Positions 46,185 to 64,000 of a DNA stretch of 64,000 nt are shown here, piece by piece. The stretch spans positions 46,683 to 110,682 of the forward strand of contig CAWEXU010000007.1 of assembly GCA_963813075.1 (NCBI GenBank), written 5' to 3'. This DNA is from Methanotrichaceae archaeon (GTDB lineage Archaea > Halobacteriota > Methanosarcinia > Methanotrichales > Methanotrichaceae). The translations under genes were made by a program, and so were the position numbers. Within the stretch, counting starts at the first letter, position 1; every line of letters starts with the position of its first letter. The notes under the pieces were generated by a model, which worked only from the letters and a program-made list of their open reading frames with translations, was not told where the DNA came from and made no database searches.

Positions 46185-47942
46185 TTATGGTTTTGCTCCA
46201 GCATATCTTCTGACATTGAGGCTCACCATATCAAAGGGAATGGTGTGCCTGTCCTGTCTGATATGAGTCTGAAGCATCTGGTATTCCCTGCTATAGGATG
46301 AAGCAATCTCTTTGGCGTAGCCTATTCCCTCTGCGGTGAGCATGTACTCATACCTCTGCAGCCACTGGCCATCCATCTCATAATGCCTCTGGTCCTGATA
46401 GATCATGCCATTGGCTACCAGGATCTGGATATCCTCAAAAAGCCTCTCGCTATAAGGAAAGCCGTATTCGGAATGAAAGGAGTAGTCGAATAGGCCGGAG
46501 AGGCCGGCAGAACCCTGATCTCTGAGCCTGGCCACCGTCCGGTAGAGCCAGGTTATGTTTCTGATCCGGGGCACCAGGATCTTCTCGCCGTATCTCTCGG
46601 AGAGCATATTGTGCAGGGTATAAAAGAGCAGCAGCAGTCCATCGATGGGAAGATAGCTCTCAGAGCGGATAAAGGTCAGAAGCTTCGACGCCTGCTCTTT
46701 CACCACCTCGAGGGATATGTTTGGCTGATCATCAGAGAAGAAGGATATGGCGATTTGGCGGGTTAGCGACTTGACCAGTCCCGCCGCCAGTGCGGATTCA
46801 TCATAAAGAAAGCCGCCTGTCTGGGTCCTCATAGAGCGGGGCACTCCGCTGCCAGAGGTGATGCTCACAAAAGCCCCATACTTTTTAGAAAGAGTATCCT
46901 CGAAGAGCTTTCTCATCCTCCCGTGGCGGGATATGGTGGATAGAGCCATCCTGATATCCGGAGCTAGAGAGCGATGGTCGAACCTGGCAGCCAGCGGATA
47001 CTCCCTGCCAAATTTTATCCTCTGCAGTAGATCGCGGGAGACATCATCCCCCTTCTCCCAGATGAACCGCAACAGGTCTGGATCGGTGTACTCCTGGAAG
47101 AACAGCATTATCCTCTTCTGGGCGTCTTCCTGATCCATTCTGGCCAGAGCGTTCTCCAGAGCGGTGAGGAGCATAGCCCTTATCGACTGGACAGAAGGGT
47201 GATAGATCAGAGCATTGTAGTGATGGGCTCTGGCGACTAGCATCGATTCTGCCGCCGTCTGGGACATCTCCGCCTGGTAGTCTCCCCGGCCGGCCAGAGT
47301 TATTCTCCCATTGCATATGATGAGGGACTCTAGGATCTGGTCCGTATCCACCAGGCCCAGGGATACGCCGGAGTGGTGGGAGTCTCTGAGCAGAAAATCC
47401 ACTCTGTCCGCATCCAGGTCGCCCACTATGATCTGGCCCAGTGGGGGCAGCTTTCCCTGAGCGATGTCTGCAATCTCGGCAAATAGCCTGTCCGCATCGC
47501 CAAAATCCCTTTCTGCTATCCTTATGGCCTCTTCGCCGAAAGGATGGCAGGAGATTATTTCTCTGGTGAACTCCTCGTGCCTGGAGGCCCTTTTGCCTTT
47601 TAGCTGAGGCTGGACCTCGGGGTTGCGTCCCAGGACCCCCTCCACGGCATGAGAGAGGGCGGAATGGCCCAGGTCGTGGAGCAGTCCCGCCAGGCGGACC
47701 TTGCGGACGTCATCTGCAGATAGGTCCAGGTGCTCGGCCATTCTGCCGGCCATATGCATGGTTCCCAGGGAATGCTCAAATCTGGTGTGGTTCGCCCCGG
47801 GATAGACCGCTTCCACCAGGCCCAGCTGCTTTATCCCTTTAAGCCTTTGCACCGGCCGGGATCGGATGACCTGCCACTCCAGCTCATCTGTCTGGATTGT
47901 GCCATGTACTGGATCGCGAATGGCACCTCTTGCGATCTTCAC
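46185..47942 (-). CDS. HD-domain phosphohydrolase (dNTPase-like) with C-terminal extension
   Basis: RDPVHG, QRL..IKQLG, HTRFEHSLG, LLHDLGH and DADRVDFLLRDS motifs. Confidence 0.85.
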   Translation of the reverse strand: MKIARGAIRDPVHGTIQTDELEWQVIRSRPVQRLKGIKQLGLVEAVYPGANHTRFEHSLGTMHMAGRMAEHLDLSADDVRKVRLAGLLHDLGHSALSHAVEGVLGRNPEVQPQLKGKRASRHEEFTREIISCHPFGEEAIRIAERDFGDADRLFAEIADIAQGKLPPLGQIIVGDLDADRVDFLLRDSHHSGVSLGLVDTDQILESLIICNGRITLAGRGDYQAEMSQTAAESMLVARAHHYNALIYHPSVQSIRAMLLTALENALARMDQEDAQKRIMLFFQEYTDPDLLRFIWEKGDDVSRDLLQRIKFGREYPLAARFDHRSLAPDIRMALSTISRHGRMRKLFEDTLSKKYGAFVSITSGSGVPRSMRTQTGGFLYDESALAAGLVKSLTRQIAISFFSDDQPNISLEVVKEQASKLLTFIRSESYLPIDGLLLLFYTLHNMLSERYGEKILVPRIRNITWLYRTVARLRDQGSAGLSGLFDYSFHSEYGFPYSERLFEDIQILVANGMIYQDQRHYEMDGQWLQRYEYMLTAEGIGYAKEIASSYSREYQMLQTHIRQDRHTIPFDMVSLNVRRYAGAKP

Positions 47943-60959: not shown

Positions 60960-61140
60960 GTGATCCGGGGTTGTGATCCGGGGTTGTGATCCGGGGTGTG
61001 ACTGGGGATGCTGACTTGCAACGGGAAACGCAGGCGAGAAAATAGCGACAGGCTCCAGCATATTTTCAAGGGCCGGGGAAGGTTGGATACAATCGAGGCA
61101 GATGCAATGCAGCAGATGCAATCCAGGCAGATGCAATAGG
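60960..61140. repeat. Short tandem repeats
   Basis: GTGATCCGGGGTT x about 3 and GCAGATGCAAT x3. Confidence 0.7.
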
Positions 61141-61389: not shown

Positions 61390-61747
61390 TAGAAACAACA
61401 ATACGAATATTATTTTTATGTAGAATGAAAAAGCAGCACGAGATTGTGTAAGGAGAGATTGTCCAGTAGTTTTATAATTGAGATAGTATTTACCAGGCGG
61501 GCTGGGGCCACTTCTTCTCAGAAATGGATAGGATAACGGTGTTCGAAACATGGACCTAGCGGCAACGAGTGTTTCAATGGGGCCACTTCTTCTCAGAAAT
61601 GGATAGATCGAAGAGAACCCGAACCTGAGCAAGTTACAGGGTTTCAATGGGGCCACTTCTTCTCAGAAATGGATACCAAATGAGTCCGGGTTGAATTTTC
61701 GCGGAGTTTCCCATGGAAAACCAAAAAAATCAAATACAAGAGACGAG

Positions 61748-63067
61748 TTATCCACCTCCATCAGATGACCTTTTCCGGTCGGGCTTATTCACAGAAATAT
61801 CTTCAAGCACTCGCATGAGGGCCTTCTTCCGGTTACTTTCGCTCATTCCATAAAAGGCATCCACAATTGCAGCTACCTTATCCGTCAGATGCTCCACCTT
61901 CAAAGAAGGTTCATGGCAGGACTCATTTCGACCCGTTCTCCTCTTTCTGCAACCAACCTCTTGGTAGAACTCCTGGTTGATCAGAAGATGATAAATGAGA
62001 CAGATGAGCTTCCTGGCCACGGCAACTATTGCCACATTATGCTCCTTCTTTTTGCTCAGCCTCTTGTAGAATCTGGACAGCGTTGTATTTTTCATATTAG
62101 CTATGGTCTGGGCAGCCTCGACAAGTACAACTCGGATATACTTGGAACCGCGTTTTGTGATTCCGCATTTCCTCTTTTTGCCGGCAGATTCATTTTCACC
62201 GGGATTGAGGCCACACCATTTCGCCAGTTGGTCAGGGGTCTGAAAATCTCTGTAGTCTCCGATCTCTGACAGAATGACTGAACCTGAGATAAATGCGATT
62301 CCAGGGATGGACATAACAATAGCCAAATCCGTGCTCTTCTTTTGAATCTTTTTCAGAACCTCAAAACTTGTCTTCTCTATTTTGGATTCGACATTGTCCA
62401 TGATTTCGAGAGCATCCCTTATCAGCATTCTATTTGTATCACTCAGTTCATTGGCAAGTGCTGATCTGATCTCGTCTTGTTTTTTCCTGATCTTTCCGCA
62501 GGGTATGCCTTTTAGGATCTCTTCGGTAGGGTTGTCTTCAGCCAGACCTCTTATGATATGATTTCCAGATTTGCAGAATATATCGTCCATAGAAGAGCTG
62601 AGTTTAACGCCATTTGATGAGAGATATTTGTGTATCCGATTCTTGAACTGAGTTCGCGTCTTGACATATCCTGCTCTGGCTCGCGTTAGGTTCCTGAGTT
62701 CTCGGTCTTCATCGCAAAAAACCCGAGATCTCTTGATTTGATTATTCAAACACAGAGTTGCAATATGCTTTGAATCTTTTGAATCTGATTTGTCATTTGG
62801 AATGGACTTTATCTGCAGAGGATTGGCAACAATGGTATCTATGGTTCGGCTCAGAGCATCATAAATCGGGATCCAATAGACTCCAGTAGCTTCGAATGCA
62901 ACCTGTTCGCATTTGTTAGCTGCAAGCCAGCTTCTAAATCTATCAAGTTCGGATTTTGTTGTCCCAAAATTCTCTCGAATCGGCGGCACTTCGTCGCCTG
63001 CTATTGTGGCAACGATCAGATCTTTATGGACATCTGCACCGCAAACTCTTTCTCTTCGCTTTTTCAT
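61748..63067 (-). CDS. IS110-family transposase/recombinase
   Basis: DEDD RuvC-like motifs GADVHK, FEATGVYW and KSDSKDS; SIPGI and GLNPGENESAG (catalytic Ser region). Likely start is MKKRRERV at 63067. Confidence 0.95.
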   Translation of the reverse strand: MKKRRERVCGADVHKDLIVATIAGDEVPPIRENFGTTKSELDRFRSWLAANKCEQVAFEATGVYWIPIYDALSRTIDTIVANPLQIKSIPNDKSDSKDSKHIATLCLNNQIKRSRVFCDEDRELRNLTRARAGYVKTRTQFKNRIHKYLSSNGVKLSSSMDDIFCKSGNHIIRGLAEDNPTEEILKGIPCGKIRKKQDEIRSALANELSDTNRMLIRDALEIMDNVESKIEKTSFEVLKKIQKKSTDLAIVMSIPGIAFISGSVILSEIGDYRDFQTPDQLAKWCGLNPGENESAGKKRKCGITKRGSKYIRVVLVEAAQTIANMKNTTLSRFYKRLSKKKEHNVAIVAVARKLICLIYHLLINQEFYQEVGCRKRRTGRNESCHEPSLKVEHLTDKVAAIVDAFYGMSESNRKKALMRVLEDISVNKPDRKRSSDGGG

Positions 63068-63079
63068 ATATGTCTCTGC

Positions 63080-63226
63080 CTGATATGGGCAGATGATCAT
63101 TCCCTTATTGGGGATAATTTCCCATACGCGTTCTAAGACGCAGTCCCGTATTCGAGGGGTATTGGCTGGTTTCAATCGCGGGATCAAGTGTCCCATAAAC
63201 TTGTCAGCCTTCACTGCCCATATCAG
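63080..63226 (-). ncRNA. Candidate IS110 bridge/guide RNA
   Basis: 13-bp perfect closing stem (63080-63092 / 63214-63226); contains ATTGAAAC (63169-63176, equal to the repeat end) then ATGGGAAA (63118-63125, equal to the IS far end); TATA-like TTTTAAT at 63242-63248. Confidence 0.6.
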
Positions 63227-64000
63227 ACTTAACATGGACGGATTAAAATATCTGGTTTTCCATCCGTCACGTGTGAGCCCCTGCCTGGGCTCATGGGCGT
63301 TTCAATGGGGCCACTTCTTCTCAGAAATGGATAGTACTGTTCTGTGGATTTCGGAGATGGAGCCCACGGTGTTTCAATGGGGCCACTTCTTCTCAGAAAT
63401 GGATAGCGAGCTTCTCCATAAGAATTCGGCAAAGCTGCCGAAACTGTTTCAATGGGGCCACTTCTTCTCAGAAATGGATAGATCGTGGGACCTCTGGAAA
63501 GCGCCCGGTTCATGAACGAGTTTCAATGGGGCCACTTCTTCTCAGAAATGGATAGGAAAAGATGGCATTGGCATCCCCGGCAAGGACGGGAAAGTTTCAA
63601 TGGGGCCACTTCTTCTCAGAAATGGATAGGGCCGATTGAGCCGGGAACTTATAATGCGATTATGTGGTTTCAATGGGGCCACTTCTTCTCAGAAATGGAT
63701 AGAATTAAAAAGGAGGTAAGATTAATGGAAGAATTAAGCGAGTTTCAATGGGGCCACTTCTTCTCAGAAATGGATAGAGAGGCCATGAGGAAGTATATAG
63801 CAGTAGTAAGTGAAAACGTTTCAATGGGGCCACTTCTTCTCAGAAATGGATAGTGGAGCGTACGTATGCGGGCGTTCCGGATTTGCTGCTAGGTTTCAAT
63901 GGGGCCACTTCTTCTCAGAAATGGATAGGGAATTAGGGGAGATTGTGACTGCAATCGCTAATCGAAAGTTTCAATGGGGCCACTTCTTCTCAGAAATGGA

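Follow-up and report, generated by a model that had tools for sequence, protein, structure and literature searches.

This report concerns an insertion sequence of the IS110 family in a 64,000-nucleotide (nt) stretch of DNA, the window, from a Methanotrichaceae archaeon (assembly GCA_963813075.1, contig CAWEXU010000007.1, forward-strand positions 46,683 to 110,682). The element interrupts a CRISPR array at the end of the window, and we consider it highly probable that it is an active element of a Methanothrix-type archaeon and that a bridge RNA, encoded in the element's left end, directs it to its target. This reading is built on the family assignment of the recombinase, the junctions of the element, an RNA fold that covaries across relatives, and the covariation of one internal loop with the flank of the insertion and of a second loop with the element's own right end. 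RNA–DNA pairing would be the cause of target choice, and both the binding of the RNA to the recombinase and the setting of the target by the RNA are putative, deduced from sequence comparison. The features on which the argument turns are the following.

61707..63298, minus strand: IS110-family insertion sequence of ~1.59 kb, delimited by the differing flanks of three copies and by 64 junction pairs from relatives
63299..63334, minus strand: CRISPR repeat immediately upstream of the element, with its last 8 nt, ATTGAAAC, at 63306-63299
63169..63176, minus strand: left target guide ATTGAAAC, equal to the top strand of the repeat tail, which would pair with the bottom strand (covariation)
63197..63200, minus strand: right target guide GUUU, complementary to top-strand AAAC (covariation)
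63118..63125, minus strand: left donor guide ATGGGAAA, with the same sequence as the terminal 8 nt of the element's right end (covariation)
61707..61714, minus strand: terminal 8-mer of the right end, ATGGGAAA, which the donor guide would read

Covariation of the guides with the target and with the element's own end

Relatives were collected in two ways: a scan of species genomes gave 11 loci, all in Methanothrix or Methanotrichaceae assemblies, and a metagenome scan with a 6-protein alignment gave 237 relatives, of which 80 loci with 40–92% protein identity were kept. The resulting 91 loci include the copies of the window genome; 68 have both junctions and a full left end, and 64 remain after removal of repeated flank pairs. 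These 64 insertions, whose elements are 40–100% related to the window element, were treated as independent. L and G numbers are the locus and genome labels of this analysis. Among the matches listed, elements at least 76% identical occur in the host's own genus alone; in the host's class, 86 of 301 genomes contain a member of the wider family (E up to 1e-40).

An earlier note on this DNA had observed that ATTGAAAC at 63176-63169 is identical to the last 8 nt of the repeat at the insertion site, and that ATGGGAAA at 63125-63118 is identical to the opposite end of the element at 61714-61707; both words are present as described. In the window, ATTGAAAC occurs 13 times against 1.6 expected, and the copy at 63176-63169 is the only one that is not a CRISPR repeat tail. 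The note had itself called 8-nt matches modest evidence, with which we agree, and the case for more than chance comes from covariation in homologues. The left flank equals the element's own loop-1 8-mer at all eight positions in 55 of the 64 insertions, at seven in 6 and at six in 3. Where guides differ from ATTGAAAC, the flank shows the same change in 44 of 45 cases. When the 15 classes of loop-1 8-mer are set against the commonest left flank of each lineage, 119 of 120 positions are equal; permutation of the flanks among the guide classes gives a mean of 72.9 and a maximum of 95, and none of 10,000 permutations reaches 119. The test that the note had proposed, covariation of 63169-63176 with insertion flanks in homologues, is thus positive. 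Forms among the 15 include ACTGAAAC, CCCTAAAC, ACCTAAAC, CACAAAGA, CACAAAAA, CAAAAAAC, CAACAAAC, TAAGAAAC, GTTGAATC, ATATAAAC and TTTAAAAC. The guide of L058, GCTAAAAC, also fits its own flank, in a locus that lies outside the 64 for want of a full right junction.

Of the right-hand guides that the note had been unable to identify, the one for the target is the 5′ strand of the same loop. This strand ends in N-UUU, with UUU opposite the target AAA, and in 45 of 64 insertions the base before UUU complements the one with which the right flank begins (shuffled mean 29.4; 0 of 2000 shuffles reach 45). It is G in the CRISPR lineage, opposite AAAC, and C in L045, L049, L050, L052, L085, L090 and L096, opposite AAAG. 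Longer matches occur in several relatives: UGACUUU with AAAGUCA (L096), CAUCUUU with AAAGAUG (L045), GGGUUU with AAACCC (L087), and UCUGUGAC with GUC(U/A)CAGA (L073 and L005). In G093, a Methanosarcina-like genome with five copies of a 36%-identical element, CUUAUUU stands opposite AAATAAG, and the 3′ strands carry GAUAAAAC and AUGCUAAA. For the non-CRISPR lineages, flank bases 1–3 are complementary in 11, 9 and 9 of 20 against about 5–6 expected, in a register that varies. Elements of the CRISPR lineage differ freely in the bases before GUUU (CAA, CAG, UAC, GAC, CAU, CGU), as expected if these bases face spacers.

The second loop behaves in the same way towards the element itself. Its 8-mer equals the element's own right end at all eight positions in 58 of the 64 insertions and at seven in the other 6, and nine of ten differences in the loop-2 guide are mirrored in the right end. 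Across the eight loop-2 forms, 63 of 64 positions agree with the right ends, where the permuted maximum is 62; forms that match their own right end include ATGAGAAA, ATGCGAAA, ATGTGAAG, ATAGAAAA and ATGGTAAA. Two segments were considered and rejected as a guide for the right donor, i.e., the left-end half-site. The basal-stem arm AUGGGC is complementary to left-end GCCCAT and does not covary with it, and the linker (CCAAUACCCC, CCAUGAUC) resembles left-end bases 4–13 in the identical and not the complementary sense, and does so inconsistently across lineages.

The junctions also bear on where the strands would be exchanged. Among the 40 insertions with a ATTGAAAC guide, AAAC is kept at the left junction throughout, and on the right AAA is followed by C in 33 cases, by T in 4, by G in 2 and by A in 1. 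A constant left AAAC and a variable right base indicate that the left C belongs to the element and that exchange occurs within AAA. In the window, the C at 63299 would accordingly be part of the element's left end, and the C at 61706 the last base of the split repeat. L009, an imperfect match that sits at ATTCAAAC, has C at guide position 4 on the left and G on the right (GGGAAAC), which places guide position 4 outside the exchanged segment. The last base of the loop-1 guide equals the first left-end base of the donor (C, or A in the L073 type). Strand exchange inside the shared AAA would yield repeat...ATTG-AAA-C-(element)...ATGGG-AAA-C-spacer, with the crossover point presumably lying within these three bases.

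Junctions, RNA and recombinase of the element

The remaining features of the element and its surroundings are listed here.

61677..61706, minus strand: C at 61706 and the 29-nt spacer (61705-61677), after which the array goes on at 61497-61676
63068..63298, minus strand: left non-coding end, 231 nt
63274..63293, minus strand: terminal hairpin of the left end, UGAGCCC/GGGCUCA, outside the abundant RNA (fold and arm covariation)
63253..63263, no strand assigned: left copy of the subterminal inverted repeat, ATGGAAAACCA, 11 nt, 100% complementary to 61713-61723
61713..61723, no strand assigned: right copy of the subterminal inverted repeat, abutting the 8-mer that the donor guide would read
63080..63226, minus strand: predicted bridge-RNA core, 147 nt, with a 13-bp basal stem (63226-63214 with 63092-63080; covariation and fold)
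63164..63209, minus strand: putative target-binding module (covariation of the closing and distal stems)
63102..63158, minus strand: putative donor-binding module (covariation, helices 4–6)
63242..63248, minus strand: TATA-like TTTTAAT, a possible internal promoter, not conserved in relatives
61748..63067, minus strand: recombinase gene, 439 aa (P0001; Pfam, NCBIfam and PDB matches)

The array lies on the minus strand and has a 36-nt repeat, CTATCC...GGCCCCATTGAAAC. The element is placed between the repeat at 63334-63299 and the 29-nt spacer at 61705-61677. With the insertion point written as a slash, the left junction reads ...CCCCATTGAAAC/GCCCATGAG, directly after ...ATTGAAA/C of the repeat, and the right junction reads GGTTTTCCATGGGAAAC/TCCGCG; the word AAA(C) is common to target and element at both. 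Three full copies, with identities of 100, 100 and 98%, are present in the host genome (2.7 Mb in 31 contigs, 83% complete), and all three occupy the same position in the repeat beside three different spacers (...ATTGAAAC/GCCCATG..CCATGGGAAAC/spacer). Three copies this similar at differing spacers argue for recent activity, and the element is intact and probably active. In the relative L038, a head-to-tail unit has a period of 1596 nt with 0 mismatches over 1452 nt (L038:5-3053); its CCATGGGAAAC-GCCCATG junction is that expected of an excised or tandem form, and either an assembled circle or an exact tandem would account for it.

The two ends are of unequal length, ~41 nt on the right versus 231 nt on the left, and the RNA is encoded in the left end, ahead of the gene. 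The arms of the terminal hairpin covary (AUGAUCC/GGAUCAU in L005 and L073), as do the two copies of the subterminal inverted repeat across relatives (CATGAAAAAC/GTTTTTCATG in L005).

Several observations concern the arrays themselves. The repeat at the trailer end, 61497-61532, is degenerate in its tail (..GGCCCCAGCCCGCC instead of ..GGCCCCATTGAAAC), and both the window copy and the L002 copy lie within 1–3 repeats of the trailer end of their array. Between the array trailer and the neighbouring genes, a non-coding segment at 61099-61140 is a short imperfect tandem of GCAGATGCAAT-like units. An intact Cas1 gene lies ~1.7 kb from the array that holds copy L003 (host genome C7:3766-4611), and two further cas1 matches (C17, C13) have stops or are split. 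Matches to PF10040 (Cas6-family) and Cas1 are present in the host genome, and Cas6 PF01881 was not found in this 83% complete assembly.

The ~147-nt segment with a perfect 13-bp stem, described in the earlier note, is present on the minus strand as an inverted repeat, CTGATATGGGCAG/CTGCCCATATCAG, with 121 nt between its arms. The mature RNA is probably this module between the basal-stem arms (63226-63080), in which two internal-loop modules would read the target (module 1) and the donor (module 2). The target module consists of a closing stem GGCUG/CAGCC, a 5′ strand ACAAGUUUAU (63204-63195), a distal hairpin (63194-63180) and a 3′ strand GCGAUUGAAAC; the donor module has an outer stem CCCU/AGGG, a middle stem GGGAC/AUCCC, a distal hairpin GCGU..ACGC (63141-63128) and a 3′ strand GUAUGGGAAAUUA. 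For 161 nt the fold has a z-score of −4.8, and none of 200 shuffles is as stable.

Covariation was assessed in an alignment (A2) of 40 RNA regions less than 97% identical, against a six-helix model composed of the basal stem, the closing and distal stems of module 1, and the outer, middle and distal stems of module 2. In these 40 homologues, 86.5% of cells are paired, versus 26–46% when the partners are slid by 1–3 columns. Eleven pairs are changed on both sides, versus a shuffled mean of 5.7, and 0 of 500 shuffles reach 11. One pair in the module-1 closing stem (column 24/67) occurs as U-A, C-G and A-U, the module-1 distal stem changes from GGGA/UCCC to GAGA/UCUC, and the module-2 outer stem from CCCU/AGGG to CUCGUG/CACGAG and CUUG/CAAG. 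Down to 43% protein identity, relatives retain the scaffold ATGGGCAG...CUGCCCAU. The note had closed the guide loop with TCCCG/CGGGA. These segments do pair in 87% of cells, but better-supported helices compete for them and they have no partner in the L005 and L073 types. As a loop closure they are displaced by GGGA/UCCC (95% of cells paired) and GGGAC/GUCCC, and the ATTGAAAC loop is closed by GGCU(G)/(C)AGCC (63209-63205 with 63168-63164). Beside the basal stem (63211-63213 and 63093-63100; A2 columns 17/151), a U-U opposition becomes C-G in L053 and L055. The conserved GUGAAGG and AUGAUCAU flanks, together with a 5′ CUGA, may bear a loose resemblance to box C/D or kink-turn motifs, which is of interest because a kinship between IS110 and Nop5 has been proposed (10.1101/2024.06.21.599552).

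Transcription of the region is suggested by the contigs of two metatranscriptome runs of one study, X15 and X16. Summed contig depth in the bins 63064-63124, 63125-63185 and 63186-63246 is 886, 6840 and 4745 in X15, and 1027, 2532 and 2405 in X16, as compared with 3–150 over the gene and 10–35 in the bin 63247-63307. Adapter letters are joined to contig ends at 63219-63227 and at 63082, and the abundant contig form has 63159 G>A, shared with a 92%-identical relative. These data hint at an abundant RNA of ~146 nt bounded by the basal stem, which would exclude the first ~70 nt of the left end, with its terminal hairpin and subterminal repeat. The TATA-like TTTTAAT that the note had reported is present at 63248-63242. 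Its 3′ edge (63242) lies 15–23 nt upstream of the adapter-joined ends at 63219-63227, and an internal archaeal promoter at this motif is possible. The RNA ends, the promoter and the mode of left-end recognition are all tentative assignments. A joint 63097>63204, found in four runs, was discarded; one of its sides is just 21 nt, and it probably stems from related elements.

The protein belongs to the IS110 family by several criteria. Residues 9–150 match PF01548, the N-terminal RuvC-like DEDD domain (E 1e-21, 77.8 bits versus a cut-off of 29), the C-terminal Tnp domain PF02371 is matched at E 2e-25, and NCBIfam NF033542, 'IS110 family RNA-guided transposase', scores 255.2 bits versus a cut-off of 140. 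Similarity to IS621 (chain 8wt6_A) is distant, with E 1e-7 in phmmer. Asp12, Glu59, Asp95 and Asp98 (D12, E59, D95, D98) are invariant in a 6-sequence protein alignment (A1), and their correspondence to IS621 D11, E60, D102 and D105 is positional and not structural. The phmmer alignment with 8wt6_A sets 'RMSKAG' against 'GITKRG', which puts Thr304 (codon at window 62158-62156) in the position of IS621 S241, with the hydroxyl retained; all 81 full-length relatives have the corresponding xTKxG motif. For IS110 enzymes, an active clade with threonine at the nucleophile position would be unusual.

CRISPR arrays as targets and the rival explanations

For a census of targets, 80 loci with at least 30 nt of left flank were used, and in 33 of these the flank recurs within the locus or across loci. 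CRISPR repeats account for 28 of the 33, 27 with a ATTGAAAC guide and one, L050, with guide ACTGAAAC in a repeat ending ...GGGAACTGAAAC. Of the other five, which are non-CRISPR or unverified, L037 and L097 lie at the RNA gene of another copy, L049 and L065 at a palindromic repeat, and the fifth is L078. Viewed by guide, 48 of the 80 loci carry a ATTGAAAC guide, 27 of them in CRISPR repeats and 21 elsewhere (20 sites). About 43% of insertions are at non-CRISPR ATTGAAAC-like sites, one of which lies inside another IS110's gene (L041). The invaded repeats represent four unrelated families, with the tail ATTGAAAC as their sole common part.

In the near-complete genome G050, two of five copies are in an array; G050 and G036 each have two copies in one array, and G106 has four copies within ~9 kb of one array. 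The host genome contains 119 ATTGAAAC sites, of which 93 are in recurring contexts, namely 90 repeat tails and the three copies' own guide DNA, so that repeat tails make up ~78% of the free sites (90 of ~116). Given this proportion, the finding of three out of three host copies in arrays is not significant as a sign of array preference.

The 8-bp word alone would be read, and nothing on the spacer side. It follows that every repeat–spacer junction whose repeat ends in ATTGAAAC is a potential site, and arrays would be mainly invaded because they hold most copies of the word. The relation of the element to CRISPR arrays is best explained by the choice of a conserved multi-copy word. At four loci (L011/L104 in G106:C12, L022, L037, L097), nested or tandem copies in which an element adjoins the guide-coding DNA of another copy, with its ATTGAAAC word, fit a target that is just the 8-mer. 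The earlier note had envisaged a recombinase programmed against CRISPR arrays, parasitising the host's guide-RNA locus. The programming is supported by guide covariation, but what is recognised is an 8-bp word and not arrays as such (21 of 48 loci lie outside them); parasitism is a fair description of the outcome, not a demonstrated adaptation.

Some loci appear rearranged. In L011 and L022 the invaded copy lacks the expected first ~130 nt, which could be a direct-repeat deletion or an assembly path. Upstream of 3001, L017 has lost an internal segment between the end of its guide and the 3′ part of the RNA (ATTGAAAC/ATCATCTGCCC), and with it the entire donor module; its gene is broken as well. 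In L007/L110 the repeat family on the left of the element differs from that on the right, and L020 has a CRISPR repeat on its left and a right flank shared with a non-CRISPR site in G050 (L108). Both cases suggest element-mediated rearrangement or chimeric assembly. The host also carries a second IS110 element, L005 (host genome C8:8043-9341), with 40% protein identity, the same RNA scaffold and the guide CACAAAGA. L005 and L073-L077 always lie 8 nt inside the 5′ end of a TnpB (IS605 OrfB-like) element, with identical right flanks in the six loci and differing left flanks.

A functional coupling to the array is conceivable with the same mechanism: the element would be a dedicated parasite of CRISPR arrays that disables or exploits immunity, and the left-end RNA would come from transcripts that read through from the CRISPR leader, possibly cut by Cas6 before ATTGAAAC. 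Every array insertion has the sense orientation of the repeat (a consequence that the asymmetric target would force in any case), loading can be heavy, as in G106, G050 and G036, and no part of these otherwise unrelated repeats is better conserved than the guide word. The L050 insertion, with a different guide in a different repeat ending, points the same way, as do the host Cas1 beside one invaded array and the Cas6-family matches. We nevertheless regard such a coupling as unlikely. Apart from the 21 of 48 ATTGAAAC-guide loci, three of the five G050 copies are also outside arrays, and with repeat tails forming 90 of ~116 free sites in the host, no preference beyond the word is needed. The abundant RNA lacks the first ~70 nt of the left end, contrary to what read-through and Cas6 cleavage predict, and the 84 host spacers have no match to the element longer than 12 nt.

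The remaining alternatives deny the RNA a guiding role. The structured left end might be a regulatory 5′ leader, with the protein picking the target and the 8-mer matches being chance or by-products of insertion. The structure does end 13 nt ahead of the recombinase start codon, ATGGGAAA is not rare (6 copies in the window versus 3.6 expected), no right-donor guide was found, and in older work IS110 ends were seen as regulators of expression (as described in PMC11208160). We hold this to be very improbable, since 44 of 45 loop-1 and 9 of 10 loop-2 changes are mirrored, over 15 and 8 classes, on a constant scaffold. A target read by the protein would not need the RNA-coding DNA to change in step with it, and no by-product of insertion could have placed the flank sequence in an internal loop that lies 120 nt within the element. 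The internal ATTGAAAC might instead be a piece of a CRISPR repeat captured as a relic of recombination, which would explain why it is identical to the repeat tail of the arrays in which the element lives. Its match is limited to 8 nt, however, and the bases 5′ of it (GCG, GTG, GAG, CTA) follow no repeat, while array-free relatives hold their own non-CRISPR target word at the same position, e.g., CACAAAGA at the TnpB element end, CCCTAAAC in a palindromic repeat and GATAAAAC in G093; we give this explanation next to no credence.

Several points weigh against target choice by a bridge RNA, or at least against its simplest form. The sequences are related, and the shuffle tests therefore overstate independence, which the lineage-level permutation mitigates and does not remove. 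Nine of the 64 target matches are imperfect: elements with a ATTGAAAC guide sit at xATGAAAC in L013, L028, L042, L045 and L056, and L060/L061 have guide TCTGAAAC at the site TATGAAAC. A right-donor guide was not found in a column-by-column scan, in which the variable left-end bases 2–5 had no non-trivial partner; the scan, of all RNA columns versus junction positions, was dominated by shared ancestry and trivial self-matches, and the 5′ strand of the module-2 inner loop is just 1–2 nt long. The guides lie on the strands opposite to those described for IS621: the 3′ strand carries the 8-nt left guides and the 5′ strand the right target guide. Thr occupies the place of catalytic S241. The TATA-like motif is unconserved in relatives (ATATTGTTAT, CACATGCTAAG, CATAGAGCCATAGG), and no Rfam family matches the RNA (over 61400-64000 at E up to 1, the sole match was TYMV_upPK by chance, with 20 bits versus a gathering score of 38). 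Finally, all transcriptome runs are assembled contigs, which cannot prove strand, true ends or level and may pool related elements, and X17 and X19, from two other studies, have no enrichment of the RNA region.

Beyond the choice of target by a bridge RNA, we tentatively put forward a broader interpretation, which we regard as possible and somewhat doubtful in its entirety: that this archaeal clade combines a mirror-image bridge RNA, Thr for the catalytic Ser and an unguided donor half-site, and that one lineage, having shed its target guide on the spacer side, is a spacer-independent colonist of arrays. If this holds, the colonist lineage would read the universal 8-nt handle word of CRISPR RNA (crRNA), and would enter, multiply in and split any array ending in ATTGAAAC.

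Comparison with known systems

The mechanism proposed here is a known one, and the CRISPR-repeat target and the layout of the RNA appear to be undescribed. No IS110 element or bridge RNA directed at CRISPR repeats was found in a literature search, which did not extend to the supplements of the bridge-RNA papers, where target motifs may be listed. Transposase_20 genes in cas loci have been listed as probably random (PMC3936711), and binding of the CRISPR-repeat-binding protein Cbp1 to the IS110-family ISC1229 in Sulfolobus (PMC10883916) is a different matter. The case would represent a new clash of RNA-guided systems, in which the guide RNA of a mobile element is set against the conserved handle word of the host's guide-RNA array. 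Insertion splits arrays at repeat–spacer junctions and takes the proper handle from one spacer, and it can seed rearrangements between arrays, as L007, with differing repeat families on each side, may illustrate. For annotation, CRISPR arrays of Methanothrix that are broken at contig ends may owe these breaks to the element. For engineering, the clade brings natural variants that IS621 lacks, namely an exchanged order of the guides, a one-sided target of 8 bp, subterminal repeats that are long, and a Thr in the nucleophile position, and its dozens of guide/target pairs within Methanosarcinia amount to a natural reprogramming table.

The closest frame of reference is IS621 with its bridge RNA (Durrant et al. 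2024, PMC11208160; Hiraizumi et al. 2024, PMC11208158). Like IS621, the element has a recombinase with DEDD/RuvC-like and Tnp domains and a structured RNA of ~150–180 nt in a long left end, in which the first internal loop would serve the target and the second the donor. In both, the guides include the core, and the two target strands are read by the two strands of one loop. The base at the 3′ end of the loop-1 guide (C or A), equal to the first left-end base, recalls the handshake guides of IS621 (PMC11208158), an equivalence that we do not claim. In IS621, each loop has its bottom-strand guide (8–9 nt) on the 5′ strand and its top-strand guide on the 3′ strand (PMC11208160, PMC11208158). The order is reversed in both loops (63176-63169, 63125-63118) across the Methanosarcinia clade sampled, which would correspond geometrically to IS621 with the gene cassette inverted relative to the ends. 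Further differences are a core inside AAA instead of CT, a subterminal inverted repeat of 11 bp instead of 2–3 bp, and a right target guide cut to 4 nt in the CRISPR lineage, which reads only 8 bp. Unlike in IS621, no right-donor guide emerged from the column scan, Thr replaces S241, the host is an archaeon, and protein similarity is confined to E 1e-7.

The traits of the IS110 and IS1111 groups are mixed in this element, its long left end with the RNA being IS110-like and its 11-bp inverted repeat IS1111-like. As described in PMC11208160, IS1111 elements have long subterminal inverted repeats (7–17 bp, compared with 11 bp here) and target repeated sequences, which is also the case here. In contrast, the IS1111 group (seekRNA/bridge RNA) has a short left end, its right end is long, and its RNA follows the gene.

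Other members of the IS110 family also aim at short conserved multi-copy words. ISPpu9 and ISPpu10 target repetitive extragenic palindromic (REP) sequences (PMC12288879; 10.64898/2026.03.19.712850), and attC sites and transposon ends are further targets (PMC11208160). The relatives described here are likewise found at a TnpB element end (L005/L073 type) and in a palindromic repeat (L049 type). Unlike for the REP- and attC-targeting elements, a stem-loop in the target is seemingly not required, as unstructured repeats and unique sites are used. In the literature searched, CRISPR repeats were hitherto targeted by protein-guided Tn7-like transposons only. The cyanobacterial Tn7-like elements (Mob DNA 2025, PMC11837452) resemble the present one in being small and cargo-free, in preferring CRISPR arrays, and in occurring several times per genome. 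They are bacterial, and a TnsD/TniQ-type protein reads their target, whereas the element in this archaeon is of the IS110 family and would be directed to the repeat by its own RNA.

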